Source of the DNA: a virus
Length of the DNA: 64,000 nucleotides
Virus record (IMG/VR): IMGVR_UViG_3300045988_076436
Direction: 5' to 3' (one strand)
In this document: positions 24,401 to 64,000 of the stretch, piece after piece
Position numbering within the stretch: position 1 is the first letter of the stretch
Layout: each line of letters begins with the position of its first letter
The notes under the pieces: generated by a model
Told to the model about the DNA's origin: nothing
Databases searched by the model: none
The model's input: only the letters and a program-made list of their open reading frames with translations
Made by a program: the position numbers and the translations under genes

Positions 24401-27400
24401 CCTCGGCTTGCTCGGCAGCTTTCTGTGCCGCAATGCGTTTCTGCTCCCCGACCTGCGCCACGGCTGCATCGTGCATCTGCTTGTCGCGCTCACGTTGCTC
24501 TGCCTCACGCTGTTCACGAATTGCACGCTTACGCTCGTTCATAAGGGCGTAAATCCTCGACCATGCGCCCAGTGTCTCCTCTGCCTCCGCCACTTGTGCG
24601 TTGTACTGCTCCATGGCGGCATTGTAGTTGGCATCGGCCTCCTGCTGTGCCTTGACCATCGCCATAGGCGAACCTTTGAGGGACGGTGCTTTCTTGGTCG
24701 GCTGTTTCTTCTTCAGCGCATCGAGTGTCTTTTGCGCTTGCTCCACCTGCGCATTGACAATGGCGGTGGTGTTGGCCTCGTTGCCGCCTGTAACCTCGTT
24801 GAGCGCGTCAAGGGCAGTCTCCTTGTCGGCCTTCTCAAACATGGGTTCGCCAGTCTCCTCATTAAGAGGAACACGCTCCAGTGCAGTCGGCTGGCGGTTG
24901 GCCTCTTTCCACTGCACGCCTTGCGCTTCAAGTTGGTGCTGGGCAAGCTCATTTCCTCCACGCGCCATCTGTACAAGTTCTTCAGTTGTCGGAGAGGCAG
25001 GAGCAACAACATCATTGTCTTGCGGTGCGGAATTATCTGAAGCCTCCTCGGTCGCATCCGCATCTTCGGCATATTCTCTCGTCCATACCGGATTACCATC
25101 CGCATCATTAATGCTCTCGACCATATTCTCAAACTCCTCGACAGGGATAATCTGCACACGCTTTCCGTTTAACGGCTCGTCTGTGCGTATCTCTACACCG
25201 TCATCGCTGATATTCTGCACCTCGCCATGAACGTTTGCACCATCACCGTCAAGGAGTGTAAAGGTGTCATTCACGCCATATTGTACACCCTCGAGCGTTT
25301 TTTGTACACTTTCGCCATCATTCTGTACATTTTCATCCGATTTTGGTACGCTTTCACCATTTTCCATACCACCAAGCACGGCCTCATGCTCAGCTTGAAT
25401 GTTGGCATAAGCCTCGTCAAGTTCGGCTTGTGGGTCAATGGCATCACCGAGATTGAAGATTTGGTCGGGACTGGTAAACTTGTATTCGCCTGTCTCGGCA
25501 TCGCATATCACAATGCTTTGGTCGGAGTTCTGTGTGTCTATGCCTGTACCATCGGGAAGTACTGCGACATTACCTTTTACAATGTACACAGGCTTGTCGT
25601 CCACCTTCATGGTAGCTGGTTGCACCATGCCGTTGTCCTTGTGGGTGTGTCGCTCCACATTGGCGGCTACCTCCCTGCGCTTATTCTCCATCGCATCGTT
25701 GGACGCATCCTGCACACCGTCCATCGCTGCCTTGGCATTGATGTAGTAGAGTACCGCATTCTGCTGGTCTTCCGTCAGTTCGGGGTCGTTGGCCAATGCC
25801 CACGGATTATCCTGTATCTCGGCCATGCGCATTTCTGCGTCCGTGCCGAAAGCGTCCTCACATTCCTGCAAGGCTTCTTTCATGCGAATGGATATGGCAT
25901 CAATATCGGCTTTCGCGTCCGCGTCTCCTTGCTCCATTTTGTCCCACAACAGGCGAGACTGGTCGTAAACGGCTGAGGCTCCTGCCTCCTCGTCCGACAT
26001 GGGTTGCTCGGCTTCCTTGCTTTGCTCCGGGAACAACCGCTCTATGTAGTCCTGCACAGCAGCCTTTTCAGGGTCAGTACGCTTGCTCGGCTCTTTTTTG
26101 ATGGCCGCGTCCACATCTACGCCTGTCTCTTCCTTGATGGCTGCACGGATAGCCTCTGGACGTTCTGCGTCTGCCATGCCTCTGTTCTCTTCCATGAACT
26201 TGTCAATGGCATCGACCATCTGCCCATAGTTGGCGATTGCGTCCTTGTCGCCCTCCTTTGCAGCTTGGTAGTTGCGCTTGACGGTTTCGGGGTCAGCACC
26301 GGGGGCAACGGCTTCAACAGCTGCGTCCCACACCTTGTTGTCGGCTTTAGCCTCGGTGTAACGCTCACCTACATCAACGCTGTTGAGTTCGGCCTGTCGC
26401 ATGATTTTGTCCTGCTCCCTCTTGGCTGATGCCTCGTCTGCAAAGCGTCTGTTCGTTACGACCTCGCCATTGGCTGTAACGGACTTCACGAAGATATTGC
26501 CGTGTTCGTCCTTTTCGGTGGTGTACCCGGTAACAGTACCCATCGGCAACTGATGCCCGGTGAGGATATAATATGCCTTGGCTCTTGCGCTCTGGCTCAC
26601 ATTCGGGTCTTGCATGAGGCGTTCCATAGTCTCGTAACCGTCAAACTCGGGGTGTGTCTTGAGCCACTGCTTGCCCAAATCCTCAACCTCGGCTTCGGGA
26701 ATGTCAAAGTTCATTACCTTTCCGTCCGTGGTTGTCGGCTGTTTTGCCTTGGCTTTGGGCTGCTGTTTTGGTGTACGCGTGAAGAGTGCCGCAAGGTCGC
26801 CATAGCCGTACTTCTGCAACTCCTCGCGCTCTTCCTTGGTGAATACCATGTCGCGCGGACTTGCGTCCAACTGCTTACGCAACAATTCACCAAAACTCAT
26901 GCGGTTGTGATTGCGCTCCTGCATGGTCTTGGGGTTCTCGATAGGGCGCAACCCTGCAATAACCCTCGGAGCGGACTTCACCATGTGCTGACCCTTGAAA
27001 CCGAGCATCATCGCCATGTTGTCCGTCCACACGTCCCATGCACTGCGCTTATTGGGATTGCCATCTTCCAACTTGGAATTTTCAATCCATTCGGGAGTAG
27101 AGAAGATTGTCCCCTCGGCAACGGTTGATGTCGCAAGTTCTCCAAAACGGATACCTCCCTTACCATACACGTTTGATGTACTTTTTACCCATTTGTCGGC
27201 AACATTGCCCAACAATGGGGAGATAGTGCCAGTTACAGAGCCAAGGATAGTGCCTCGTCCTGTCGATTTCAAGATGTCCTCTGCCGAATATCCCTCATTC
27301 TCGCCTGTCTGCGGATTGATGTGTCCGCCATGCAGCCACTGGCTCTCGCCCTCCTTGATGCCCTCGTATGTGCCGAAGTTCAAGCCTCCACCAACCGAGC

Positions 27401-52692: not shown

Positions 52693-53249
52693 CAGAATGA
52701 AATGATTGAATAAGTTAATCCTATGCCCACATACGGCTGCATTCCTTTCGTGCCTATGCCGTACCCGGTCGTTATGCCTATGTGCCACCGCTTAGGGGGC
52801 TGCTTCTCCTTGATGGTTACCACCTCATGCAGCGGATACACAAAGATGCTGTCGAGCCGTGCGTGTACGCCACTGACGTATGCCTTGTAGTCCGCGCTCT
52901 CATACACGCTCTGCATGATGGGCAGCTCTATTGTCGCGCTGTCCGAACCGTTGGCGGCAATGCCTTTTGCATAACCCTTTGCCGTGTCGGTGTCGGCTCT
53001 GATGGGTGGCAGTGCTGCATCGCCCATCTTGATGCAGTCCGTTGGCACTCTCACCTCGGCAGTTCCGACTGGCTGCTCGCTGGTGTACTTAGGTTCTCCC
53101 GGCACGTCTCTTACCGTGTCGCGCTTTATGATGGTGTCGGTTTGGATCACGATGTTGTGGCCGTTCCCTGCCTTGGGTTCGGGGTAGAGCAGTGCCACAA
53201 GCAGGAGCGTGAGCAACACGCCTCCTACAAAACTCAATGCGTGTTTCAT
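52692..53249 (-). CDS. Lysis-cassette membrane-anchored protein (185 aa), spanin-like position
   Basis: ATG 53249 overlaps the amidase stop (ATGA). The N-terminal TM segment is ALSFVGGVLLTLLLVALLY. The C-terminus is G/Y/I-rich (GITTGYGIGTKGMQPYVGIGLTYSIISF). Confidence 0.55.
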   Translation of the reverse strand: MKHALSFVGGVLLTLLLVALLYPEPKAGNGHNIVIQTDTIIKRDTVRDVPGEPKYTSEQPVGTAEVRVPTDCIKMGDAALPPIRADTDTAKGYAKGIAANGSDSATIELPIMQSVYESADYKAYVSGVHARLDSIFVYPLHEVVTIKEKQPPKRWHIGITTGYGIGTKGMQPYVGIGLTYSIISF

Positions 53250-53899
53250 GCTTTCGTGTGTTTGATGTAGTCCGTAATGCCTTTGTAGTGCAACTGCACG
53301 ATGCTCCGCACGCCCTCCTCGCTCAACAGATATTCCACGTCTGCCTTGTTGTCTTGGAAGAGGTTCTCCGTCAGCACGGCTGCGCACTTGGTATGCAGCA
53401 GTATGTAGAAGCGTGCCTCATAGTCGGGGTCTTTGTCGCTCCAGTCGGCACGCATGGGTTTCTGCTTGCTGTCGTAGTCGCCCTTGGCCTTGTGCACGTC
53501 AAAGCTGCCGATGTAGTCTTTCAGGCTTTCCTCGGCTGCGTTCCACAGGTCGGTGGCAAGCAGGTCGGCACTCGTCTGGCCGGGCGAGGTATATACGCAC
53601 CAGCCTCCTGCGCTCTTCCACTGGCCGTCAGCTCCTGCGGCATTGTGGTGTATCGACACGAGGAGCACGTTCTTCGCTCCGTACTTGTCGCAGTACTTGT
53701 TGGCTCGCTTGCATCGCTCGGCAAGCGACACATCGGTCTCTTCGGGTACGAGCAGGTGTGCCTCCACTCCGTTGCTCAGTAGGGTGTTCACCAACCTGCG
53801 TGCTATCTCTCTCGCTTTCTTGTATTCGCGCAACCGCTTGTCGGGGCTGCACTTGCCCGGTGTGTTCTCACCGTGGCCGTTGTCAATCAACACTATCAT
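53246..53899 (-). CDS. N-acetylmuramoyl-L-alanine amidase endolysin (217 aa)
   Basis: IVLIDNGHGENTPGK...LLVSIHHNA...AAVLTENLFQDN matches the Amidase_3 zinc-ligand pattern (H...E...H...E). Confidence 0.8.
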   Translation of the reverse strand: MIVLIDNGHGENTPGKCSPDKRLREYKKAREIARRLVNTLLSNGVEAHLLVPEETDVSLAERCKRANKYCDKYGAKNVLLVSIHHNAAGADGQWKSAGGWCVYTSPGQTSADLLATDLWNAAEESLKDYIGSFDVHKAKGDYDSKQKPMRADWSDKDPDYEARFYILLHTKCAAVLTENLFQDNKADVEYLLSEEGVRSIVQLHYKGITDYIKHTKA

Positions 53900-54752: not shown

Positions 54753-55226
54753 TTACTGGAGGTCAAACACGCTCCAGTCTATGTTGTCTTTTTCTTTCCA
54801 ACCGTCCATGATGGCGTTGAGAATGTAGGCTGATGCCTCCTTGCTGAACTTGATGAAGTCCTCTCTTGTCTCAAAGGTGTAGTACACTGGCGTTGCGTCC
54901 GCCTCCTCGTTGAGTTTCAGCGTGAGCGGATAGGCTATGCTCTCGTTGTTTTCCAAAGATGCGTAGTTGCGCTGCTTCTCGTCCGACAGCCATACCTTGA
55001 TGCCGTCATACTCAAAGCGGTTCACAATCTTGTCCTTGGTCTCTGCGTCTATCGTGTCTCTGACAAGCTGCTTTATCTCGTCCATCGTGGGCTTGCGGCT
55101 GAACGTGTGGCGGTATTCATAGTTGCCGTCCTCGGTCTCGTAATAGCCGAAGTAGAGCAGCCATTTGTTCTTGCCTATGCGTTGCAGTCCATCTTGCCGT
55201 TGGGTTGTGCCGTATATCTTCTCCAT
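54753..55226 (-). CDS. Hypothetical protein (157 aa) downstream of the RT
   Basis: Clean ORF with no motif recognised. Confidence 0.6.
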   Translation of the reverse strand: MEKIYGTTQRQDGLQRIGKNKWLLYFGYYETEDGNYEYRHTFSRKPTMDEIKQLVRDTIDAETKDKIVNRFEYDGIKVWLSDEKQRNYASLENNESIAYPLTLKLNEEADATPVYYTFETREDFIKFSKEASAYILNAIMDGWKEKDNIDWSVFDLQ

Positions 55227-55301: not shown

Positions 55302-56792
55302 TTAAGTGAAGTTATACTTGCGCTTGCTGCCGTCAAACACCTCACACTTGATGATGGTCTCGAATGGAAAGCCGTCCTCTATGTCGCTTATCTGGTCAAG
55401 TATGCCTTTCATCTCCAACGAGGCGGTGAAGAACTTGCCCCATTCCGAGTTGGCTGGATTGCGGAATGACACCAAATAGCGGTCTTCGCCCTCTTTTGTG
55501 TCTATGCCTGTCTCAAAGTCGTGAATTTCTATCGGTATGTTCACGATGTCACCGAGGCGTGTCACCTTGCCGGGAAAGCGTTTCTTGCCGTCAGCAGGTG
55601 TATAGGTTACGCCCATTTCTGAAAACTTCTTCATGTGTTTACCTGTTAATGTATAATATAGATGTTTACAATCTGCGTGGCAAGCCATTCCCTTGAATGA
55701 CCCTATTATCTGTTGCCGCCTCTTGCGCGACTTTATCTTGGCGAGTTTCCGTGCAGCGTTCACCTTGGTACGCTTTCTCAGCAGGGAGTAGTCCCCATAA
55801 TCAACAAAGCCGAGTGCGTCCATTCCTGCACTGATGGGTGCAACTTTCTCACTCGGCTTTATTATCAGATTGTAGGGTTTGCATAGTCTATGCAGGGTGT
55901 CCCTGTGTTTCCACAACTCTTTCTTGTTGTCTCCAAGTATGTATATGTCGTCACAAAAGCGGTTGTAGTTGTCTTTTCCACATTCCTCTATCATGGCATG
56001 GTCTATGTCGTTGTGGTACAGGTTGCCGAAAAACTGCGAGGAGCGTAGTCCCTTGCTGATGCCTACGTTGTCATTCGGGTGCAGAGCCTTTACAAAGTCT
56101 ATGAGTATGGGCAGCAGCACTGGGTCGGCAATGTAGCGTTTTATTATCTCTATCAGTCGGTCATGCAGTATGTGGTCGTAGTAACCTTTGTAGTCGCTTT
56201 GATAGTAGTATATGAGTTTCGGATTGTTCCGCCTTGCCTCCTGCATCTTGTGATACAATCCGTGTGGCCCTCTTCCCTCTATCGAGGCTGCGGTGTTCTC
56301 TATCAGTATGGGCGCAAGGTGTTTTTCCACTATCTCCATGATGGCGTTGCTGCCCACACGCTCTATGACGGACGGTGCTTGCACGGTTCTTATCTTCGGG
56401 CCGTCTGCCGTCTCAAACGATTTAAGGTGCTTGATGCGGAATGTGCCGTTGGCTATCTGTGCCTTTAGCATGGCGATGATGTCCGCCTTGCGTTTCATGT
56501 AGCGCACCATGCGTGGCGTGCATTCCACTCCGTCTATAACAATATTCTCCCTCCACCGTAGGCCGTTGCGAGTATCTGCGTTGTGCAGGTTCGACATGAC
56601 GCGCTTGAACGAGCGTTCCATGTTCTCGTCCGCTATGATTTCGGGGATAAGGTCTAATAACGGAAAACAGATAGAAGTCTTTTCTTCTACCTGCCCCAAT
56701 AGTTCTTCCAATGTATTGACAGCCTTCCTGTCCTGTGGGGAGATACTTGCGCACTCCCCACATGTGGTTAATGTCGTGTTCCGGCTTTCCAT
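55302..56792 (-). CDS. DGR-type reverse transcriptase with an extra C-terminal domain (496 aa from ATG 56792; track ORF from GTG 56855)
   Basis: RT motifs: YYYQSDYKGYYDHI (catalytic Asp), GISKGLRSSQFFGNLY (the GxxxSQ hallmark of DGR RTs, cf. Bordetella IGNLTSQFFANVY) and RFCDDIYILG (xxDD). It lies adjacent to the TR. Confidence 0.9.
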   Translation of the reverse strand: MESRNTTLTTCGECASISPQDRKAVNTLEELLGQVEEKTSICFPLLDLIPEIIADENMERSFKRVMSNLHNADTRNGLRWRENIVIDGVECTPRMVRYMKRKADIIAMLKAQIANGTFRIKHLKSFETADGPKIRTVQAPSVIERVGSNAIMEIVEKHLAPILIENTAASIEGRGPHGLYHKMQEARRNNPKLIYYYQSDYKGYYDHILHDRLIEIIKRYIADPVLLPILIDFVKALHPNDNVGISKGLRSSQFFGNLYHNDIDHAMIEECGKDNYNRFCDDIYILGDNKKELWKHRDTLHRLCKPYNLIIKPSEKVAPISAGMDALGFVDYGDYSLLRKRTKVNAARKLAKIKSRKRRQQIIGSFKGMACHADCKHLYYTLTGKHMKKFSEMGVTYTPADGKKRFPGKVTRLGDIVNIPIEIHDFETGIDTKEGEDRYLVSFRNPANSEWGKFFTASLEMKGILDQISDIEDGFPFETIIKCEVFDGSKRKYNFT

Positions 56793-56886
56793 ATTTATAT
56801 GCTGTTGCCGAGGCTCTAATCCCTCGGAGTATGTTTGTGGCAATCCTCGTGCCACGTCAGAGACCTCCGATTAAACTTAACCAAGA

Positions 56887-57002
56887 GAATTTCAGCCGCC
56901 CACCGTAGTTCGTGTTCGAGTTCGAAGAAGCGTTGTTCGCGTTCGCATAGGCGAGACCGCTGTTCGCATTCGAGTTGTTGCCAGACCGCAGAACACAGCG
57001 GC
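56887..57002 (-). repeat. DGR template repeat (TR)
   Basis: 116 bp homologous to 57842-57957. In coding orientation it is AAC-rich: ...GGC AAC AAC TCG AAT GCG AAC AGC...AAC GCG AAC AAC...AAC TCG AAC ACG AAC TAC GGT GGG CGG CTG AAA TTC. Confidence 0.9.
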
Positions 57003-57033
57003 GCGTGGGATTTTCTGCCTTTTGTTCCTTTGC

Positions 57034-57336
57034 TTACATAATCGGACGCACTATGTCCACTTTCAGACCAAGCGCATCAATGATGCGGAAGAACATGCCG
57101 ACACCCGGCTCTATCACGCCTTTCTCTATGCGTGAGATATAGGTTTTGTCTGTTCCCACTTTCTTGGCAAGGTCTGATTGCGTCATGTGCTCTTGCTTTC
57201 TTGCGTCAAGGATTATCTGACCTACACAATAGTTGGTTGCCTCCTTTCTGAACGCTTCTCTTTCTGCAGTTCCTACTGCGCCATACTTGGCATCAAGAAT
57301 GGCATCGAAACTGCTAATGTCATTTCTTTGCTGCAT
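57034..57336 (-). CDS. XRE-family HTH antitoxin, HigA-like (100 aa)
   Basis: HMTQSDLAKKVGTDKTYISRIEKGVIEPGVGMFFRIIDALG. ATG 57336 overlaps the toxin 3' end by 17 nt. Confidence 0.75.
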   Translation of the reverse strand: MQQRNDISSFDAILDAKYGAVGTAEREAFRKEATNYCVGQIILDARKQEHMTQSDLAKKVGTDKTYISRIEKGVIEPGVGMFFRIIDALGLKVDIVRPIM

Positions 57337-57655
57337 AATATTCCTTTTTAAGTTCAAGTGCTTTCTCTATCTCCTTTGAGGGCGTCTTTTGGGTTTTCTT
57401 CTGAAAGCCGTTGAACAGCATCACGATGTTGCCCTCATCAAAGATGAAGAATGCACGGTATATATTCCCATTGTAACTGGCTCTAATCTCATAGAGTCCG
57501 TCCTTGATGAACTTCACAAATTTCTCACTCACTCTCTCCTGCATCTTCAGCACATCAAGCACATAGTCTATCTTCTTCTGTGCGCCCATTTCCAAAGAGC
57601 GGTAGAACGTGAGGAAGTAGTCTTTGTAAAGTAATATCTTCCTCTCTGAATTCAT
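57320..57655 (-). CDS. RelE/HigB-superfamily toxin, Gp49 (DUF891)-like (111 aa)
   Basis: ...FIKDGLYEIRASYNGNIYRAFFIFDEGNIVMLFNGFQKKTQKTPSKEIEKALELKKEY matches the Gp49/HigB-type pattern (LYELR...R.FY.F..g..ivll.gF.KKtqKTP..EI..A). The toxin-first order matches higBA. Confidence 0.75.
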   Translation of the reverse strand: MNSERKILLYKDYFLTFYRSLEMGAQKKIDYVLDVLKMQERVSEKFVKFIKDGLYEIRASYNGNIYRAFFIFDEGNIVMLFNGFQKKTQKTPSKEIEKALELKKEYYAAKK

Positions 57656-57659
57656 GCTG

Positions 57660-57667
57660 CAAAGGTA
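57660..57667 (-). promoter_or_regulatory. Bacteroides-type -7 box (TACCTTTG) 4 nt before the toxin ATG
   Basis: The reverse complement of 57660-57667 is TACCTTTG. It is the only such box I found between the VR and the RT. Confidence 0.45.
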
Positions 57668-57720
57668 ATACTTAAAGTTGATATATCCTACAACTTTTGC
57701 AATTATTTTGCATCACTCAT

Positions 57721-57740
57721 AAAAAACTCGCTTACGCGAG
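57721..57740 (-). terminator. Rho-independent-type terminator after the DGR target gene
   Basis: The minus strand reads CTCGC-GTAA-GCGAG followed by TTTTTT. Confidence 0.5.
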
Positions 57741-57749
57741 AAAGCAGGG

Positions 57750-57784
57750 AGAGGGAGCAGCCTCCTATCGTCGGCTCTCCCTCT
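57750..57784 (-). other. Strong GC-rich hairpin 58 nt downstream of the VR
   Basis: 12 bp with one bulge: 57750-57762 pairs with 57773-57784 (AGAGGGAG(C)AGCC / GGCTCTCCCTCT), with a 10-nt loop. Confidence 0.55.
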
Positions 57785-57814
57785 GACGCTTTTTTCGTGG
57801 CTGCGCTTGCCGCT

Positions 57815-60800
57815 TTATCCGACTATTACGAATTTGCCGCGGAAGGCCAGCCGCCCACCGAAGCCCGTGAGCGAGAACGAAGAAGCGAAGTTCGCGACCG
57901 CAAAGGCGAGACCGCTGTTCGCATTCGAGACGCCGCCAGACCGCAGAACACAGCGGCCTCTGCTGCCGGGAAACCACAAACCTGCCGCATAGTGGGTGGT
58001 GTACTTGCTCGTGTCGGTCTGATGCACCTTGCTTGGCAAGATGTCGCACTTCGCTCCATGCACCACTCTCACAACGCAGTTGCCGTTAGAGTTCACACTC
58101 TGCACCACACGCTCGGTTTTCTTCACCGGGTCATAGATGTGGAATTTGTAGTCTATGGGGTCATCGTTGGTCTCCACACAGCGGTTCTTGTAGAACGTCT
58201 CGTAGCTCTGCACGTTTCCTGCTATGTAGTCCATCCATTCCGAGTCGCAGCCCACATAGTGTTTGAGTCCCATGATGGAGTTCATTGCGTTGCCCACATA
58301 CGAGGTGTCGGCCATACCTATGTTGTCGAGGCTGTTCAGCGTGGCATCGTGTGCGCCATTGCCAACAACAGACTGCTCGTTGGTCGTGCCGTGGGTCGCC
58401 CACCACAGGTTGCTGATTTCCTTGTGCTGCTCGTAGTCTTGGAGCTGGTAGCCCTCTCCGCGCATGTGCGCACTGTTTTGGAAGTCCTTTGCCGTGTAGT
58501 GTATCGTCCCGGTCGGTGTCTCTGTCGGGTTGCCGTCAGTGTCGTATGCCCATTCTGCCGAGGTCTGCGAAGTGCCGTCTCCCTTGCGTGAGCGCACCGC
58601 GCCCGATATGCTCCTTGGTCGTTTCAGTCCGTCTATGGTGATGGGGTATGTTCCCAAGAGGCTGTCGTTCTCGCCAACGGTGTGCTCCGTCCATTCGGGT
58701 TCTATGGCCTCTATATGCTCGCTATCAACGGCAAGACACAGGCTGTCCTCTATGTCGCGGTACGAGGTGAAGTACATCCACTTCGCTCCGCCAGGCACAT
58801 CGCAGAACACGTAGTTGCCTATCGAGAAGTCGAAGTAGGTGTGGCTCACCATCATGTTGAACTTGCCTACTATCTGTCCGTTCTCGTCCGTGAACACGGC
58901 TCCGAGCCTTGCGTGGTTCAGTCCCGGCCATCTCACCTGCTTCATGCCCTCCACGTCCATGCGGTAGGCGTTCACGTTGGCAGCGGTGGTGATGATGTTC
59001 TCGTCTATCACCGTGCCTACCTCTGCCTCGTCAGCATACACGCCTGTGTTCTCCGCATAGAGCAGTGCCGATAGCATGGCCTCGCGCTTGTTGTTCACGG
59101 TGGATAGCGGCTCGTTCTCCGTGGTCGAATAGACGATGTACTTCTGTTGGTTCTTGTAGTCGTTCACGCCCTTGTACCAGTGGTGGGGCAGATGGTGGAA
59201 GATGTCAAAGCCCTCTCCTGCGCTATCGCCCACATCGAAACTCTCGCCTGTGGCAAGATAGTTGAAGTCGCTGTCGCTCAGTTGCACGCCCTCCATCTGT
59301 TTGAGTTTGGAGTTGTAGGTACACTTGTAGGCGTGGGTCTCCTGCAATATCTTCAGTGTGTGTCCGCTCGCCACAAAGGTCTTGTCGTAGTCCGAACCTG
59401 TCTTGTTTTCGGGGTTGCTGTATCGCTCACAGAAGTCTCCGCTCACGATGTCGTCTATCTTCACCACCGAGAACTGCGAGTTGATGACGGTCAGTTTCGG
59501 GAAGTATTTCTGCAATGCCTCCACCTCGCTGTCCTCCACAAGTTCTGTCAGTATCCATCGGCCGATGATGCCGCTGCACTGCCCGGTCTCATCGTAGGTG
59601 CTGCCGTTCGCGTCTATGCCCACGGCTTCGCTCTGCATGATGCCGCGCAGCATCTCCACGCTGGCGGTGGCGTTCACGCCCGGTATGCGCACGCTCTTCA
59701 GCTGTCCTGCCGTGGTTATCTGCCGCAGCAGGGTCATGGTGTCGATGTGCGGACACTCGTCAAGGAACATTTTCTTCACGTTCGTCATTCCTGCTATGGT
59801 CAGTCCGCCAGGATAGGTCAGCTTGGGCAGGTTCTTGAAGTAGAGCGTGGTCATGGTGGCTGGCAGTTCAAGGGTCTCTATCGGGGCTGTCTCGGCAAGG
59901 TCTATGCTCGACAGTTGCGAACCGCTCGCCAACACCTCTTTCAGTCTCGGGCAGTACGAGGCGATGATGCTTGTTACCTTGGTGTTGCGTGCGTCTATGC
60001 GTCTGAGGAAACTCTTGTTGCCCATGTTGAGCTGCGTGATTGCTCCGCTTTCCTCGGCTGGCGTGTAGTCCGCTCCGCCAAGTATCAGTTCTTGCAGCAT
60101 CGTGCAGTTCGAGATGTCCCAACCCTCGGCTTTCGGGGTGCAGCCGCTGATGTCAAGACTGGCAAGGCGTGTCGCTCCGAACACGTAGAGCATCGTTCCT
60201 GCGCCTGTGGCGGTCATGCCGCTCTTCAGCGTGTAGCTTTCTCCTGCTTTCAGATAGCAGCTGTCCACACAAGCGTCCGCACGGTCCACTCCTAATCCGA
60301 AGAAGCCGTCCTGCACTGCCGTTATCTTGATGCTGATGTCCGTACCCACGGCACGCATCTTGAACGGATTAGTGTACAGCTCGCCCACTTGGTAGTAGCC
60401 GTCACGGTAGGCAAAGCGTTTCTCAAACGTCACGGGCAAGTCCTCATATCGCAATCCGTGTACGGCATAGTAGTAGTTTGCACCTGCCTTGGAGTTCTCG
60501 ATGTACTTGCGCTCTCCGTCAAACGAGCTGGTTATCTTCGCCCACTTCGCTATGCGGTCGGTGATCCAGAGTTTCTTGCAGCCGTCTGCGGAGAATATCT
60601 TGATGCCGTCTGCCTCCGCGCTGCGCATATCGCCCGCTATGTCGTGCAGCGTGATGGTGGTCTTGCCCTCATCTTCAAGCCAGAACTTGTCAGCTGCATA
60701 ACCTTGCTTGAACATTACAGAATTCCAACCTTGGTAATAATGCTTAGTGTCTGTCACGCTGTCCAAATCCCATGGCACAGTAATACCGCAGTCATTGTCA

Positions 60801-63800
60801 GCAAGCCAACAACAGTCTCCGTCATACCAATGGTTGAAGTAGGCGCGTATGCTGCCGTTGATGTCAAGATAGAACGAAATCATCATGTTCTTGCTTCGTT
60901 GGTCAACAGCAAGCACATAATCAGTACCTATAATGTAACAACCCGTAGAACGAACGTTGGCATAAAGGTAGAGTTCCTCGCAGAACTTTTTCAATCGGTT
61001 CTCCTTTGTTCCTGCCACGCTCTTGCCGTGCAGGGTGATGTTTCCGTCTGCCTCGGTACGGTCTTGCGAGCATTGCTGTGTCCATAGCAGCCACTTGTAT
61101 AGGTTGTACGGCACTTTCTTTCCCTTGGCGTAGAGGTCGTTCAAGTCGTCATCGTCGGGGTATCGGCTCTCGTAGTAGCCGAGCCACACGGGTTCGCCTG
61201 TCGATTGGTCTATGCGCATGAGGTCGTCCACGCTGTTCACGCCTTGCAGCCAACAGAACGAGTCGTATTTCAAGTACTCAAAGCACTCTACCGGGTTCAG
61301 CACCCTGCCTGTCACGCCCCATTTCTTGGTGCTCGTGTCATACTGCATCTTGCCTGTGGTGTCTTTCCACTTGCCTCCGCTGTATTTCACATACTTGTAG
61401 TCGTTCGTCAGGTACACCGTTCCCCAGTCGTAGTTGTTCACATCGTCTGCCAGCACCTCGGCAAGGCTCTTGTCCACTTCCGTGGGGTCGGCTGTGGCGG
61501 TGGTCTCCTGCATCGTGCCTGTGCCGTCATTCTCCAAGAAGATGTGCTTCTCTCCGCAGTTTTCGCTCAGCATGTAGATGTTCGAGGCTATCAGCTCTTC
61601 GCTCTTCGCCAAGGTCTGCACCTTGAAGATGTTGAGGTCTTGGTTTTTCTCGGCCACGAGTTCCACAAAGTCGCCATAGTTCAAGCAGTCGCTGTTGTAG
61701 CCGCTCACTTTCTCGAAGCCGAAGAACGATGGGTTGCCCTTGTCCACGTTGAAGTTGGCCTTGGCATGGAAGTAGGCGTAGGTCTCGTTGGTCGCGTCCA
61801 CGCTCTGCTGGTCGGTGCGGAATAGGGCGCACGTCACGCTGTCGATGCTGGTGTTCATCGTGTCGCCTCCGTTGTAGGCATTCTGCGCTGGGGTCATGTA
61901 GTCCGCTCCCATGGCTCGCTGGGTCTTGTTCATCAGCTCCATGGTCGCTCCGTTGTTCGCGCCTGTCGAGTCGGAGTAGTCCACCTTGATGGTGATGGTC
62001 TTTACCCACAAGCCTCCGTCTATCACCTGCACTTGGCTCTTCGCGGCCATCTTCTTGGCCTTTTGGAACTTGGCCAGTGCCACTGGGTCGTTCTTGAAGT
62101 CCTCCTCTGTGTGGAGCATCTCTATCTTGCAGCCTTTGAACTTGCCTTTCTTGTTCTTCACGGGCCGCAGCGATGAGGTCGTGCCTTGGTTTGTGGTCGG
62201 CACGTTGTACACCTTGCAGTCCTGCCATGGCCTGTCGGGGAAACGGATTACCCAGTCAAAGTATGCCTTGGTCTTTTTGTCTCCGTCCAGCTTGTCGAGG
62301 TAGCCGGGGTAGCTCTGCTCGATGTCGGGGGTGTCGGCATTCTTCAGCAGGGTCACGCAGCATAGTCCTGCGTTCATGCACGCTTGCATGGTCGGCCTGT
62401 CCTTGGTTGTTCCCTCTGCGGTCTGCGAGGCCATCACTTGGTTCTTCTCGTACTCCGTCAGCATGGCTGCGGTGTCTTTCTGTCCCACCAAGTAGTTGTT
62501 GAATGCCTGTCGGTAGTTGTAGTAGGTGGCCCAGCCGATGGCACGGTACAGGTAGATGTCGGCTTTCGTGCCGTCAAACTTTATCTGCATGTCGTTGTGG
62601 GCAAACTTCCCGGCATTGTAATAGGTGGCTGCGGCCTCGTCTCCGTTCACATATATCTTGATGGAGCCTATGCCGCTGTATGGGGCTATGCTGGTCGGCT
62701 CTATCACAATGTCGAAACGTGTCTCCTTGTCAGTGGCATACAGGGCTACGGCTGTCTGCTGTGCGCCCAAGTCATCGGGGTTGGCTGCGGTTGCTCCATC
62801 ACAGGTGAACACGAGTTTCTCGCCTGTCAAGTAGAAGCCGAGCTGGTTGTCGCCCAGGCAGTCGATGATGCGTGCCGTGCGGTCTTCCACATTTTTCACC
62901 TTTACCGTGAAACTCAGTGCCATGCCGTTCTGTTCGATGCTGGTGTTGGCGAATGGCTTGAACGAGCACACGGCTTTCATGTCCTCGGCTATGCGGAGTG
63001 CCATGCGTCCCTTGTCGTTCTCCGTGCCGTAGGTGGGCGTGCCGTAGGTGTCCTTGACAAATCCGTTGCTCGACCAGTTGCAGTTCTCAACGGTGATTTC
63101 CACTCCTCCGTCCTTGATGGTCTTGTCGGTCTCTCCGTTGCTGCGTGAGTCCATCGTGATGTTGAACTCGCGCATGGTAGTCACTTCCTCCACATCTACA
63201 AGCGAGCCATCAACAATGAATGTGGCGGTTTCTGATGCGCTGTCTCCGCACGTCACTTTCACCGACACGCTCTTTGTGCCGTCATGCACGCTCTCCTGCA
63301 CTTGCTTGGTGAACGTGTTGGTCTGTCCCCGGTAGGCCACAGTGGTGGTCTCCTGCGCTCCGTCATACCACACCACGGCTTGCGGCTCGTCCGTGTCGGC
63401 TGCATACACGGCATAGTCCACCTCGATGTTCTCATAGAGTTTTCTCTTGCCTTGCAGCTGCTCGGTGTACCAGCGCATGCCCACTATCGGGGTGTTGTTG
63501 CCGCTCTCCACCACCATGACGGCAGTGTGGAGGTAGTTGCCCACCACGCCCGAACCTACATCTTCTCCGTGTATGCGCAGGGGGTATGCGCCATGTGTCA
63601 GTGTCTCGCCCAAGCAGCTCTTCGGGTCTATGGTGATGGAGTGCGAGTAGGTGTCGAGAACTACGCTTGTGCCGAGTGTCTGCCACTCTCCGTTTATGTA
63701 TATCTCGGTTACTACCTTGATGCCTTTGTCCGATGCGTTGTTGGCAAACTTGTACATCGGTATGCTCTTGGCGGCTCCTCCTGCGGCAAGGGCGGTGCTT

Positions 63801-63997
63801 GCCGTGTAGTTGAGGGTCTGCACACTGCTGATGGTAACATCTACACCGCTCACGTTGATGTTCCTGCTGCCTGTGTTTCCTGCATCATCATAGGCGATAA
63901 GTTGGAAACGCTTGGTGGTGGCGGTTACGAAGTAGCTGCTCACGTCCATTTCGAAGTCGTAGGTGTCTCCGCTTGCCGATGACGCTCTGTTGAACAT
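57815..63997 (-). CDS. DGR target: very large receptor-binding/tail-fibre-type protein (at least 2,060 aa; may continue beyond the window) with a C-terminal variable lectin-like domain
   Basis: The VR encodes the last ~45 residues (...CVLRSGGVSNANSGLAFAVANFASSFSLTGFGGRLAFRGKFVIVG), resembling CLec-fold DGR variable proteins. There is an internal leucine-rich-repeat-like block (~59650-60180). The ATG at 63997 may be internal, since the 3 nt upstream are still open. Confidence 0.8.
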   Translation of the reverse strand: MFNRASSASGDTYDFEMDVSSYFVTATTKRFQLIAYDDAGNTGSRNINVSGVDVTISSVQTLNYTASTALAAGGAAKSIPMYKFANNASDKGIKVVTEIYINGEWQTLGTSVVLDTYSHSITIDPKSCLGETLTHGAYPLRIHGEDVGSGVVGNYLHTAVMVVESGNNTPIVGMRWYTEQLQGKRKLYENIEVDYAVYAADTDEPQAVVWYDGAQETTTVAYRGQTNTFTKQVQESVHDGTKSVSVKVTCGDSASETATFIVDGSLVDVEEVTTMREFNITMDSRSNGETDKTIKDGGVEITVENCNWSSNGFVKDTYGTPTYGTENDKGRMALRIAEDMKAVCSFKPFANTSIEQNGMALSFTVKVKNVEDRTARIIDCLGDNQLGFYLTGEKLVFTCDGATAANPDDLGAQQTAVALYATDKETRFDIVIEPTSIAPYSGIGSIKIYVNGDEAAATYYNAGKFAHNDMQIKFDGTKADIYLYRAIGWATYYNYRQAFNNYLVGQKDTAAMLTEYEKNQVMASQTAEGTTKDRPTMQACMNAGLCCVTLLKNADTPDIEQSYPGYLDKLDGDKKTKAYFDWVIRFPDRPWQDCKVYNVPTTNQGTTSSLRPVKNKKGKFKGCKIEMLHTEEDFKNDPVALAKFQKAKKMAAKSQVQVIDGGLWVKTITIKVDYSDSTGANNGATMELMNKTQRAMGADYMTPAQNAYNGGDTMNTSIDSVTCALFRTDQQSVDATNETYAYFHAKANFNVDKGNPSFFGFEKVSGYNSDCLNYGDFVELVAEKNQDLNIFKVQTLAKSEELIASNIYMLSENCGEKHIFLENDGTGTMQETTATADPTEVDKSLAEVLADDVNNYDWGTVYLTNDYKYVKYSGGKWKDTTGKMQYDTSTKKWGVTGRVLNPVECFEYLKYDSFCWLQGVNSVDDLMRIDQSTGEPVWLGYYESRYPDDDDLNDLYAKGKKVPYNLYKWLLWTQQCSQDRTEADGNITLHGKSVAGTKENRLKKFCEELYLYANVRSTGCYIIGTDYVLAVDQRSKNMMISFYLDINGSIRAYFNHWYDGDCCWLADNDCGITVPWDLDSVTDTKHYYQGWNSVMFKQGYAADKFWLEDEGKTTITLHDIAGDMRSAEADGIKIFSADGCKKLWITDRIAKWAKITSSFDGERKYIENSKAGANYYYAVHGLRYEDLPVTFEKRFAYRDGYYQVGELYTNPFKMRAVGTDISIKITAVQDGFFGLGVDRADACVDSCYLKAGESYTLKSGMTATGAGTMLYVFGATRLASLDISGCTPKAEGWDISNCTMLQELILGGADYTPAEESGAITQLNMGNKSFLRRIDARNTKVTSIIASYCPRLKEVLASGSQLSSIDLAETAPIETLELPATMTTLYFKNLPKLTYPGGLTIAGMTNVKKMFLDECPHIDTMTLLRQITTAGQLKSVRIPGVNATASVEMLRGIMQSEAVGIDANGSTYDETGQCSGIIGRWILTELVEDSEVEALQKYFPKLTVINSQFSVVKIDDIVSGDFCERYSNPENKTGSDYDKTFVASGHTLKILQETHAYKCTYNSKLKQMEGVQLSDSDFNYLATGESFDVGDSAGEGFDIFHHLPHHWYKGVNDYKNQQKYIVYSTTENEPLSTVNNKREAMLSALLYAENTGVYADEAEVGTVIDENIITTAANVNAYRMDVEGMKQVRWPGLNHARLGAVFTDENGQIVGKFNMMVSHTYFDFSIGNYVFCDVPGGAKWMYFTSYRDIEDSLCLAVDSEHIEAIEPEWTEHTVGENDSLLGTYPITIDGLKRPRSISGAVRSRKGDGTSQTSAEWAYDTDGNPTETPTGTIHYTAKDFQNSAHMRGEGYQLQDYEQHKEISNLWWATHGTTNEQSVVGNGAHDATLNSLDNIGMADTSYVGNAMNSIMGLKHYVGCDSEWMDYIAGNVQSYETFYKNRCVETNDDPIDYKFHIYDPVKKTERVVQSVNSNGNCVVRVVHGAKCDILPSKVHQTDTSKYTTHYAAGLWFPGSRGRCVLRSGGVSNANSGLAFAVANFASSFSLTGFGGRLAFRGKFVIVG
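57842..57957 (-). repeat. DGR variable repeat (VR)
   Basis: Offset exactly 955 bp from the TR. There are 19 mismatches, every one at a plus-strand T of the TR (A in coding sense). They affect 10 codons (7 AAC, TAT, TAC, AAA). Confidence 0.9.
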
Positions 63998-64000
63998 GAA

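Follow-up and report, generated by a model that had tools for sequence, protein, structure and literature searches.

An avd-less diversity-generating retroelement of the Hankyphage / BS-TP4 type and its putative tail-fibre-like target gene

The window, a viral DNA stretch of 64,000 nucleotides, very probably carries an intact diversity-generating retroelement (DGR), belonging to a temperate phage (Caudoviricetes) of Bacteroidales from the human gut. The cassette is of the avd-less Bacteroidales type. Its order is target gene with variable repeat (VR), hairpin, terminator-like stem-loop, promoter-like region, Gp49/XRE pair, template repeat (TR), RT-3 RNA, reverse transcriptase (RT) and 157-aa gene (Table 1). 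The window has intact copies of RT, TR, RT-3 RNA, hairpin and accessory ORF, and all catalytic motifs are conserved. The DGR belongs to the known Hankyphage / BS-TP4 type of Bacteroides phages and is genuine but not new, since this type has already been described. The phage that carries it is a very common temperate phage of the human gut. The original prediction of a DGR is supported as a whole, apart from corrections to the substitution count, the extent of the cassette and the receptor-binding label of the target. It had placed the cassette at 55302-57957; the DGR is there, but it is larger and also takes in the 157-aa gene, the RT-3 RNA, the hairpin and the target gene in full, the last of these extending beyond the window end.

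Table 1 Features of the DGR cassette in window coordinates
Feature	Coordinates	Strand	Evidence or remarks
157-aa acidic protein (pI 4.8), DUF4376-related	54753..55226	-	directly downstream of RT
DGR reverse transcriptase, 496 aa from ATG 56792	55302..56792	-	Pfam RVT_1, PDB phmmer, AF2, Foldseek
RT C-terminal extension (~residues 410-496)	55305..55565	-	phrog_19665, E 7.8e-18
Structured RNA, Rfam RF03068 (RT-3 RNA)	56727..56872	-	cmscan 61.7 bits vs gathering score 40.5, full-length match
Template repeat (TR), non-coding	56893..57002	-	110-nt core, 24 adenines; repeat search, alignment
XRE-family helix-turn-helix antitoxin-like gene, 107 aa	57034..57357	-	Pfam HTH_3, 52.1 bits; NCBIfam antitoxin-type
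Gp49/HigB-RelE-family toxin-like gene, 111 aa	57320..57655	-	Pfam Gp49, 80.9 bits vs cut-off 23.9; NCBIfam RelE/ParE-type
Promoter-like region	57660..57697	-	regex scan, coordinates
Intrinsic-terminator-like stem-loop and T-run (CTCGCGTAAGCGAG TTTTTT)	57721..57740	-	sequence, fold; conserved in relatives
GC-rich hairpin (AGAGGGAGAGCC...GGCTGCTCCCTCT), ~60 nt downstream of VR	57750..57784	-	folding
DGR target gene, 3' part	57815..64000	-	ORF list; at least 2060 aa in window
Fixed VR 3' boundary, IMH-like end of homing tract (sense GCC TTCCGCGG)	57837..57847	-	related-contig comparison
Variable repeat (VR), 110-nt diversified core	57848..57957	-	repeat search, alignment, related contigs

Adenine-specific differences between the repeats

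Re-alignment of TR (56887-57002) with VR (57842-57957, offset 955) gave 116 gapless columns with 97 identities and 19 mismatches, as originally counted. All of the mismatches fall on TR positions with T on the plus strand, hence A in the coding (minus) sense. The earlier list of ten codon changes is also correct: seven AAC codons, TAT, TAC and AAA of the TR correspond to GGC, GTC, TTT, GTC, TTC, TTC, CTC, GGC, TTC and GCC in the VR. An independent search found 56893-57002 and 57848-57957 as a 110-nt repeat, 85% identical. There is no third TR/VR copy within the window, where the next best match has 61 mismatches in 110 positions. The VR core encodes about 37 codons, ending 10 codons before the stop of the target gene (RCVLRSGGVSNANSGLAFAVANFASSFSLTGFGGRL), and a conserved leader, GGCAGAAAATCCCAC, precedes the TR at 57005-57019.

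The adenine-only pattern claimed for the 19 differences stands, but not their common origin. At 56890-56892 the sense TR reads AAA opposite GCC in the VR (57845-57847). The VR triplet is GCC with zero entropy in about 65 related contigs, which is every related locus examined, and the opposing TR triplet is AAA, ACA, GAA or AAC. The AAA/GCC triplet is a fixed boundary difference and not a product of mutagenesis. Because it is fixed across relatives, the mutagenised core is limited to the 110 nt of the repeat, and 16 of its 24 adenines, rather than 19, carry substitutions attributable to mutagenesis. The column just before the boundary (core position 110) is polymorphic and mirrored between TR and VR. 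By chance, all 19 mismatches would fall on the 27 T's among 116 positions with a probability of 7.7e-16, and all 16 core mismatches on the 24 T's among 110 positions with one of 1.1e-13.

We compared 40 related loci, defined by a TR within 4 mismatches of the window TR. They contain 39 distinct VRs versus only 5 TR alleles, and the VR is polymorphic at 24 of 24 core adenines. Mean VR entropy is 1.24 bits at TR-adenine columns versus 0.05 bits at other columns. Substitutions are present at 49.4% of A-sites (T 250, G 184, C 28) and at 9 of 3354 non-A sites (0.27%). The median adenine substitution density among related loci, 0.5, matches the ~50% reported for BPP-1 and Bacteroides DGRs. Non-A polymorphisms of the TR at core positions 53, 101, 104 and 110 recur in the cognate VR, which means that there is information flow between the repeats. 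The adenine-only pattern was also found in a further 12 contigs (10 from ENA metagenomes and 2 from MAGs).

The TR is identical in most contigs whose RT is 96-100% identical. The closest contig (L039) is 0.87% different outside the VR, compared with 17 of 110 sites (15%) inside it. The related contigs support the recent diversification that was originally proposed for the cassette, and the differences between them suggest that the window copy is active.

It could be argued that the DGR is a fossil, a copy that once worked and is now inactive, with VR differences that are old alleles, inherited and shuffled by recombination. Decay does occur in the lineage, since the TR is mutated or the RT split in a few related contigs: A-sites of the TR are changed in L007, L009, L088 and L091, the RT gene is split into two ORFs in L087 and L091, and VR and TR have collapsed into one repeat in BKO1-TP3. 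We nevertheless consider a fossil very unlikely in the window. Its components are intact, VR divergence is saturated (15-19 of 110 sites) in contigs less than 1% different elsewhere, the many VRs share essentially no intermediate haplotypes, and in culture the homologous cassette of Hankyphage is active.

It is even harder to ascribe the hypervariability to metagenome assembly, with consensus or chimeric contigs built from mixed populations across the 110-nt repeat. Some contigs are possibly chimeric, having VR-like bases in the TR (L007, L009, L088), TR indels (L004, L010) or a 57-nt VR deletion (L003). However, an artefact would neither confine the differences to TR adenines nor keep the TR invariant in ~90% of contigs, and the cultured, complete BS-TP4 genome has the same A-only pattern. 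Mixed VR populations would themselves indicate DGR activity.

The reverse transcriptase and its flanking elements

The ORF 55302-56855 on the minus strand contains the predicted GxxxSQ motif and xxDD box, in the form of KGLRSSQFF (KGLRSSQ at 56034-56054) and FCDD (55944-55958). The frame stays open upstream to GTG 56855, and the true start of the RT is uncertain because ATG 56792 falls inside the RT-3 RNA. R135 is the equivalent of R74 in bRT, the RT of Bordetella phage. This residue and the GxxxSQ signature, which stands in place of QGxxxSP, are invariant across 32 RT homologues (motif interpretation from PMC7826257). The first residue of the signature is Lys rather than Ile/Val/Leu, at a position that promotes adenine mutagenesis in bRT (PMC7826257).

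The enzyme groups with DGR RTs, in agreement with its earlier classification, and is closest to bRT by both sequence and fold. The best PDB sequence match is bRT (phmmer, 8ub7, E=1.6e-19), with group II RTs at 2e-4. The AF2 model (pLDDT 78) has its best Foldseek matches in 8ub7_A and 8ubd_A (target TM 0.81-0.83). An ordinary diverged duplication beside an unrelated RT (retron, group II intron or Abi/DRT), its A-only pattern being a coincidence, is effectively refuted: group II, DRT9 and retron RTs do follow bRT in the Foldseek list and NCBIfam gives weak matches to group II, Drt3a, retron St85 and Drt2 models, but the latter are all 6-17 times below the cut-offs, bRT is the top match by sequence and fold, GxxxSQ replaces QGxxxSP, and the A-only pattern (P ~1e-13 to 1e-15) recurs in over 60 loci independently.

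C-terminal extensions of up to ~150 aa are present in ~20% of DGR RTs (PMC5758913). In the window RT this region is beta-rich, with five strands and one helix (AF2 pLDDT 85-89), and it is very strongly conserved, with many invariant columns. It has zero Pfam matches even at E<=10. An Avd-like identity was rejected (hhalign probability 0.04%).

The RT-3 RNA lies directly 3' of the TR. In 17 of 17 related loci it occupies this position (Hankyphage scores 146.6 bits), and it lies between TR and RT in 18 of 18. Covariation is visible in the alignment made for this analysis. The BPP-1 spacer matches RF03022 at the equivalent position, and the RT-3 RNA is the positional counterpart of this DGR spacer RNA. 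As it is the sole Rfam match in the whole window, group II intron, retron and other RNA families were not detected there.

Of 56 loci, 55 retain the hairpin, and fully compensatory double changes (AAGGGAAG/CTTCCCTT and AGATGGAG/CTCCATCT) occur in two. By analogy, the hairpin may correspond to the hairpin/cruciform of DGR target sites. The adjacent terminator-like stem-loop is predicted to end the target-gene transcript. The Bacteroidetes -7 motif TACCTTTG at 57660-57667, the only TAnnTTTG between VR and TR, is preceded by the palindrome AAAGTTG..CAACTTT (57674-57697). In relatives that lack the toxin-antitoxin pair, TAnnTTTG is found 28-47 nt upstream of the TR (6 of 6 loci). It is possible that the region 57660-57697 serves as a promoter.

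Target, cargo and accessory genes

The target ORF continues past the window end, with an in-frame TTC preceding the first ATG. The full protein has ~2736-2740 aa in identical prophages (ENA contigs). Its C-terminal 261 aa match phrog_14959 (E 7.8e-80) and phrog_5302 'tail protein' (E 2.2e-10), and the C-terminus is 26% identical over 358 aa to that of the Hankyphage 'tail fibre'. The product is a putative giant tail-fibre-like or receptor-binding protein. The 'receptor-binding' label, given outright in the original prediction, comes from homology with the putative tail fibre of Hankyphage and from the PHROG tail-protein match, which are consistent with such a role. A C-type-lectin fold was not found in the variable domain, for which the AF2 pLDDT is 48, Foldseek returned nothing meaningful and there were no Pfam or PDB profile matches.

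The toxin-antitoxin pair is cargo inserted between VR and TR. Its two genes overlap by 38 nt, and the antitoxin-like gene stops 32 nt before the TR. The toxin-like gene is missing from ~40% of related cassettes, matched by the presence or absence of the antitoxin-like gene. Toxin alleles only 63-65% identical occur in cassettes that are otherwise 96% identical.

The 157-aa gene directly follows the RT in 71 of 72 loci checked, including Hankyphage, and lies 750 nt further away in L060. Its product is 30% identical (E 9e-23) to a Hankyphage ORF labelled 'Avd' in GenBank; against DUF4376 the Hankyphage protein scores 29.7 bits and the window protein 14.9 bits. No Avd homologue was found in the cassette with Pfam, and the 157-aa protein was rejected as one, having no similarity to BPP-1 Avd. 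It is a candidate accessory factor that fits the 'CH1' description of Wu et al. 2018. Judged only by their strict co-conservation, the RT-3 RNA, the RT C-terminal domain and the 157-aa protein may be replacements for Avd.

Known DGRs and the proposed diversification of the target

Hankyphage (Bacteroides phage p00, BK010646; jmh43_hp, PV107405) has a DGR for which adenine-specific VR diversification was shown experimentally and which is active in culture (PMC12135933). As in the window, a giant tail-fibre-like target has a C-terminal VR, followed by TR, RT-3 RNA, RT with C-terminal domain and a DUF4376-type 160-aa ORF, and the VR 3' flank CTGGCCTTCCGCGG is identical. However, the RTs are only ~40% identical, the hairpins downstream of the VR differ in sequence, and in Hankyphage a small ORF (hp41) between VR and TR is found in place of the toxin-antitoxin insertion. 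The Hankyphage backbone is a 42-kb Mu-like transposable phage, whereas the window phage is ~64 kb with a 6448-aa polyvalent protein.

BS-TP4 (PQ571277), a cultured Bacteroides phage with a reported DGR (Gut Microbes 2025, PMC12694917), is of the same phage family as the window, with a 64,274-bp genome and synteny across the lysis, RT and target regions. Its cassette is organised as in the window, including the RelE-type toxin and XRE regulator between VR and TR. The 110-nt TR/VR pair differs at 9 positions, all at adenines, and has the AAA/GCC boundary in common with the window. The two phages share ~72% nucleotide and 74% RT protein identity, but their toxin-antitoxin alleles are only 32-36% identical. 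BS-TP4 was isolated on B. salyersiae, while only metagenomes and prophages have yielded the window sequence.

The prototype BPP-1 (mtd-avd-TR-brt) shares the window's order: the target-VR is followed by the TR, a structured spacer RNA adjoining the TR on its 3' side, and the RT. Its bRT is the closest solved structure to the window RT. In both systems mutagenesis is adenine-only at ~50% density, the 3' boundary is fixed and a GC-rich inverted repeat lies downstream. Unlike the window cassette, which has no Avd homologue, BPP-1 needs Avd (Bbp7). The spacer RNAs belong to different families (RF03022 in BPP-1, RF03068 in the window), bRT (328 aa) lacks the ~90-aa C-terminal domain, the RT signature is IGxxxSQ instead of KGxxxSQ, and the target Mtd has 381 aa compared with more than 2700 aa.

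Wu et al. 2018 described an avd-less 'Lineage 3A / Architecture E1', restricted to Bacteroides and relatives, with a flanking gene, CH1, for an acidic protein of 160-169 aa (pI 4.7 +/- 0.2) without recognisable motifs (PMC5758913). The window resembles this lineage in its small acidic protein after the RT (157 aa, pI 4.8), the lack of avd and its Bacteroides-infecting cultured relatives, the likeness to CH1 being one of description only. The RT-3 RNA and the toxin-antitoxin insertion were not described by Wu et al.

In the proposed mechanism, a transcript would be made over the TR and the adjoining RT-3 RNA, probably starting at the promoter-like site and reading through the toxin-antitoxin genes. 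The substitution pattern suggests that the RT copies the TR into cDNA, misincorporating only at template adenines, and that this cDNA replaces the VR at the 3' end of the giant tail-fibre-like gene. Comparison of related contigs places the 3' limit of the transfer exactly before the fixed GCC/AAA triplet, and the conserved hairpin, by analogy with BPP-1, probably helps to mark the target. About 16 codons of the C-terminal ligand-binding surface, mostly AAC, would be re-drawn repeatedly in this way, which presumably alters receptor specificity.

Template and variable repeats

The hallmark of diversity-generating retroelements (DGRs) is a pair of near-identical sequences, the template repeat (TR) and the variable repeat (VR), whose differences are limited to TR adenines. 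Realignment of 56887-57002 with 57842-57957 is gapless, with a constant offset of 955, and gives 97 identities and 19 mismatches over 116 columns. Each of the 19 mismatches falls on a plus-strand T of the TR, an A in the coding (minus) sense. The adenine-only divergence of the original prediction is thereby reproduced, and the ten TR-to-VR codon changes that it listed are all correct. The confinement of 19 mismatches to the 27 T's of 116 positions has a P value of 7.7e-16. A separate repeat detection in the window returns a 110-nt direct repeat, 56893-57002 and 57848-57957, with 85% identity. For the 16 mismatches of this core, all on 24 T's of 110, P is 1.1e-13. A third TR-like copy, corresponding to a second target, is absent across the window, where the next best match has 61 mismatches in 110 positions.

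Features of the DGR cassette and its surroundings
Feature	Position	Strand	Description
Target gene	64000 to 57815, past window end	-	full protein 2736-2740 aa in identical prophages
VR	57848-57957	-	37 codons, ending 10 codons before target stop
Conserved hairpin	57750-57784	-	~60 nt past VR; stem AGAGGGAG/CTCCCTCT
Terminator-like stem and T-run	57721-57740	-	
24-nt palindrome	57674-57697	-	next to -7 motif
Promoter-like site	57660-57667	-	Bacteroidetes -7 motif TACCTTTG, downstream of palindrome
Gp49/RelE-family toxin-like gene	57320-57655	-	Gp49 80.9 bits (cut-off 23.9)
XRE-HTH antitoxin-like gene	57034-57357	-	HTH_3 52.1 bits (cut-off 23)
TR	56893-57002	-	conserved leader in front
RT-3 RNA (Rfam RF03068)	56727-56872	-	61.7 bits (gathering threshold 40.5), model positions 1-148 of 148
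157-aa acidic protein gene	54753-55226	-	directly 3' of RT, pI 4.80

All 19 substitutions had been ascribed to mutagenesis. This explanation holds for the core, where 16 of the 24 adenines in 110 nt are substituted in the window's VR, but not for the last three mismatches, which form a fixed boundary triplet. In the sense orientation the triplet reads AAA in the TR (56890-56892) and GCC in the VR (57845-57847). Because the VR triplet is GCC, with zero entropy, in every related locus examined, these three mismatches do not originate from mutagenesis; the TR triplet is AAA, ACA, GAA or AAC. Core position 110, immediately before the triplet, is G or C depending on the lineage and always identical in the TR and VR of a given locus. 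The mirrored position and the fixed triplet together place the end of sequence transfer exactly between the two. Typically in DGRs the 3' ends of VR and TR show an IMH/IMH* difference, and the VR is followed by a GC-rich inverted repeat. As judged from the alignments, the triplet marks a fixed 3' boundary and is an IMH/IMH*-type difference of this kind. Beyond it the flanks diverge, and the VR end, GGTGGGCGGCTGGCC, is GC-rich.

An IMG/VR search with the reverse transcriptase (RT) retrieved 69 loci with RTs 48-100% identical, and the TR and VR were extracted from each. Adenine-confined TR/VR differences are present in 55 related loci as well, and non-A mismatches are rare. The core comparison set consists of 40 loci, window included, whose TR has at most 4 mismatches to that of the window. 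It contains 5 TR alleles and 39 distinct VRs. All 24 core adenines are polymorphic in the VR, with a mean entropy of 1.24 bits at TR-adenine columns versus 0.05 bits at the other, essentially invariant positions. In the pooled distinct VRs, substitutions affect 49.4% of adenine sites (T 250, G 184, C 28), compared with 9 of 3354 non-adenine sites. This value and the median substitution density of 0.50 agree with the approximately 50% reported for BPP-1, the prototype Bordetella phage, in vitro and for Bacteroides DGRs in vivo. A DGR template does not code for protein, abounds in AAY codons when read in the VR frame and carries no risk of creating stops. The TR of the window is likewise non-coding and contains ten AAC and one AAT Asn codons in the VR frame, and a stop codon occurs in only 1 of the 39 VRs, caused by a non-A change. 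Differences are mostly or only at A-sites in the more distant relatives (RT 48-64% identical). Twelve more contigs have the same pattern. Ten are ENA human-gut metagenome contigs of 210-398 kb that carry the phage as a prophage and were retrieved with the exact 157-aa protein, and 2 come from metagenome-assembled genomes (MAGs).

The few non-adenine TR polymorphisms, at core positions 53, 101, 104 and 110, are mirrored in the cognate VR, indicating that the two repeats exchange information, as retrohoming requires. Transfer probably runs from TR to VR through a cDNA intermediate. Outside the VR, 0.87% of 9.4 kb distinguishes the window from its closest relative (L039), but within the VR the two differ at 17 of 110 positions. 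However divergent the background, the VR is saturated, with differences at 15-19 of 110 positions. The proposal of recent diversification is upheld by this saturation between close contigs and by the occurrence of 39 VRs with 5 TR alleles. Such a pattern is expected if the VR has been re-drawn repeatedly and recently, and the comparison between contigs suggests that the window copy is active. We are highly confident that the window contains a functional DGR of the type found in Hankyphage and BS-TP4, two cultured Bacteroides phages.

Some loci depart from the common arrangement. Among about 70 contigs, 4 have a TR that is itself substituted at adenine positions (6 in L007, 15 in L009, 16 in L088 and 12 in L091). 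The changes are common to the locus's own VR in the first three; in L091, which also has its RT split across two ORFs, they are unlike those of the VR. Such TRs either arose by gene conversion from VR to TR, with decay of the template, or are assembly chimeras. An IMG/VR locus with a 100% identical RT (L003) has a 57-nt in-frame deletion within the VR, at approximately 2950-3010, between repeated CGAAC motifs. It could be a result of template slippage during cDNA synthesis, recombination or assembly error. TR indels are present in L004 and L010.

The target is a putative receptor-binding protein, based on its homology to the putative Hankyphage tail fibre and a match to a PHROG tail protein. 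The variable residues of DGR targets are typically displayed on a C-type-lectin (or Ig) fold. The variable region of this target has no match in Pfam (E<=10) or in a profile search of PDB sequences. An AlphaFold2 model of the last 349 aa, obtained with a 23-sequence alignment, has a pLDDT of 47.8, and a Foldseek search with this low-confidence model returned nothing below E=4. Only 13 VR-encoded residues are aligned with the BPP-1 target Mtd by hhalign (FASSFSLTGFGGR with SGPSFSFAFFGAR), at a probability of 0.15%. A C-type lectin domain has been reported in the homologous Hankyphage protein (PMC6199706).

Reverse transcriptase, spacer RNA and candidate accessory protein

In DGR RTs, motif 4 is [I/V/L]GxxxSQ in place of QGxxxSP, and the catalytic box is of the YxDD type. 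The ORF adjacent to the repeats contains both KGLRSSQFF (GxxxSQ) and FCDD, as first noted from the sequence, and RVT_1 is detected in a Pfam search. Among all PDB sequences the best match is the BPP-1 DGR RT (8ub7, E 1.6e-19, residues 126-401), followed by group II intron RTs at E 2e-4. Matches to the NCBIfam group II, retron St85, Drt2 and Drt3a models are all far below the cut-offs. The AlphaFold2 model, based on 32 homologues, has a mean pLDDT of 78, and its best Foldseek matches in the PDB are BPP-1 RT structures, with a target TM of 0.81-0.83. Residues G248-L-R-S-S-Q253 (GxxxSQ), C280-D-D and R135, the equivalent of Arg74 of the BPP-1 RT (bRT), are invariant in the 32-homologue alignment; the meanings of the motifs are taken from Handa et al. 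(PMC7826257). The placement of the enzyme in the DGR clade is thus supported by bRT as the top match in both sequence and fold and by the invariant GxxxSQ motif.

Differences from bRT can be observed. The bRT signature starts with Ile181, whereas the window RT has an invariant Lys at this position, not I/V/L. The protein is also approximately 170 aa longer than bRT. Residues ~410-496 form a beta-rich domain with a pLDDT of 85-89, which is the most conserved part of the protein. This C-terminal domain has no Pfam match and matches only phrog_19665, a PHROG without annotation. In whole-model Foldseek searches of the PDB and BFVD, the RT core dominates the matches, which are uninformative on the extension.

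In BPP-1, the spacer at 2750-2882, between the TR (2887-3020) and brt (1756-2742), matches Rfam RF03022 ('Phage_DGR'), whereas the window and its relatives have RT-3 in that same position. RT-3, listed among the 'RT motifs' by Weinberg et al. 2017, scores above threshold in this position in 17 of 17 related loci tested and reaches 146.6 bits in Hankyphage. The spacer alignment contains the invariant blocks AAUCG, CGAGG...CUCGGCAAC and GGAAAGCCGGAA, and the hairpin arms covary freely (GUGGCA/UGCCAC, GCCUG/CAGGC, GUCCG/CGGAC, GAUGA/UCAUC). RNAalifold on the MAFFT alignment of the spacers missed the variable hairpin as a result of register shifts, and the structure was resolved by the Rfam model. 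Because it occupies the position of the BPP-1 spacer in the window and all 17 loci, with conserved blocks and a covarying hairpin, RT-3 is, on comparative grounds, the spacer RNA of this DGR lineage. By analogy with BPP-1, it may have a role in priming and RT binding.

The RT ORF is open from 56855. Its usual ATG (56792) falls within the RT-3 RNA, and conservation of the protein starts at approximately 56666. The ATG is part of the invariant GGAAAGCCGG block, and the first 22 RT codons overlap the RNA, including two covarying hairpins (56727-56792, minus strand). Loop indels in this overlap are multiples of 3 in close relatives; in distant relatives the RT begins only past the RNA. The overlap region may be dual-use, or the true RT start may be a downstream TTG at 56708 or 56696.

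The accessory protein Avd occurs in 74% of DGRs, so that its presence is not a universal feature of them. No Pfam, NCBIfam or PDB match to Avd was found among the cassette ORFs searched, and hhalign against BPP-1 Avd gives a probability of 0.04% for the 157-aa family and likewise 0.04% for the RT C-terminal domain. Relatives that lack the toxin-antitoxin (TA) pair have just 160-236 nt from VR to TR, which leaves no room for an avd gene. This absence does not exclude DGR membership, since avd-less DGR lineages are documented by Wu et al. 2018 (PMC5758913).

A homologue of the 157-aa protein is encoded directly downstream of the RT in 71 of 72 loci, over a range of RT identity from 100% to 40%; in L060, a TA-less locus, it is located ~750 nt further on. 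One of the 72 loci is that of Hankyphage, a phage with an otherwise unrelated backbone. Its homologue (30% identity, E 9e-23) belongs to Pfam DUF4376, and the GenBank label 'Avd' is positional. As described by Wu et al. (PMC5758913), the accessory gene CH1 encodes 160-169 aa with a pI of 4.7 and is found only in avd-less DGRs of Architecture E1, Lineage 3A, a lineage restricted to Bacteroides and relatives and with no avd, HRDC or MSL gene. The window protein is CH1-like in its described properties: it has 157 aa and a pI of 4.80, avd is absent, and the relatives of the phage infect Bacteroides.

The RT-3 RNA, the RT C-terminal domain and the acidic protein are strictly co-conserved. For this reason it is conceivable that the Bacteroidales-phage lineage carries out Avd-independent mutagenic retrohoming, in which the RNA, the domain and the DUF4376/CH1-like protein replace the Avd and Sp-RNA of BPP-1. 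We regard the chances of this reading as evenly balanced.

Elements between the target gene and the template

The stem of the conserved hairpin downstream of the VR is present in 55 of 56 loci, with fully compensatory double changes in two distant loci. Its inner stem covaries too (AGCC/GGCT to AACC/GGTT). By analogy with BPP-1, the hairpin is a candidate for the target-marking inverted repeat, although the BPP-1 repeat adjoins the VR end and the window hairpin is ~60 nt away from it. The palindrome next to the promoter-like site could be an operator.

The toxin-like and antitoxin-like genes overlap by 38 nt, with the toxin family first, and their families and order are those expected of a type II TA system (HigB/Gp49-RelE and XRE-HTH). 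The pair is cargo: ~60% of related cassettes carry it, the others lack it, and the two genes are gained and lost jointly. The VR-TR spacing is ~955 nt with the pair and 271-347 nt without it. Toxin alleles are only 63-65% identical between cassettes that are 96% identical elsewhere.

A TAnnTTTG motif is located 28-47 nt upstream of the TR in 6 of 6 TA-less loci (L020, L047, L060, L062, L066, L069), and the sole TAnnTTTG between VR and TR in the window lies just upstream of the toxin gene. From these positions, the TA pair appears to be inserted between the cassette's promoter and the TR. No terminator was found between the antitoxin stop (57034) and the TR (57002). Such an insertion means that the template RNA is probably co-transcribed with the TA pair. 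As the TA operon separates the TR from the only recognisable promoter, one could speculate that antitoxin autoregulation controls template-RNA synthesis, and hence the diversification rate, in the window variant, a less likely sub-hypothesis that we consider doubtful.

Phage context and known relatives

The window constitutes nearly the whole genome of a temperate phage of ~64 kb, and related IMG/VR contigs are 62-66 kb long. The cultured relatives BS-TP4 (64,274 bp, on B. salyersiae) and BKO1-TP3 (on B. koreensis) are ~70-72% identical across the region. At least 1000 public contigs encode the exact 157-aa protein, whose only annotation is hypothetical protein of 'Caudoviricetes sp.', and some of the copies are in prophages within contigs >200 kb. 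In a scan of genome-collection contigs, 94%-identical cassette copies are present only in Eggerthellaceae and Sphaerochaetaceae MAG bins (L073, L076), which are most likely phage contigs mis-binned into unrelated genomes. The same scan gave 49-63% matches in Prevotella and Bacteroidaceae MAGs.

A single ORF of 6448 aa (9408-28754, minus strand) covers 30% of the window. Its InPase, ddrB-ParB, SNF2/Helicase_C and LPD38 domains identify it as a phage 'large polyvalent protein'. The DGR cassette is followed on the same strand by a lysis module with an Amidase_3 endolysin (53246-53899, minus strand) and small membrane-protein-like ORFs, an arrangement also present in BS-TP4 and BKO1-TP3. BKO1-TP3 (L002, PQ571269) has a single repeat at 9709-9824 with all adenines unmutated. 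The 5' flank of this repeat is VR-type (target end) and the 3' flank is TR-type (AAATTC, then RT-3 RNA). The spacer was apparently lost through VR x TR recombination, and what is left is a collapsed DGR with a target that would end in unmutated template sequence.

DGRs of this design have been described, and the window element belongs to that kind. The Hankyphage DGR was reported by Benler et al. 2018 (PMC6199706), its activity was shown in culture and virions in a 2025 PLoS Biology study (PMC12135933), and the BS-TP4 DGR was reported with myDGR in 2025 (PMC12694917). Direct demonstration of RT-dependent cDNA synthesis and VR replacement is confined to the homologous Hankyphage cassette. Two links were not met in the literature searched: Rfam RT-3 as the TR-RT spacer of the lineage, and the TA pair between promoter and TR. 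The RT-3 assignment and the TA placement are modest additions.

The phage is very common, and temperate phages of gut Bacteroidales are expected to carry a DGR. The putative receptor-binding tip of this phage keeps changing, which bears on host prediction, strain tracking, contig assembly and any phage use. With its dozens of TR/VR pairs, its natural variants with and without the TA pair and one natural VR x TR collapse, the lineage constitutes a clean data set. It could serve to study Avd-less retrohoming and to find out what the orphan Rfam motif RT-3 does.
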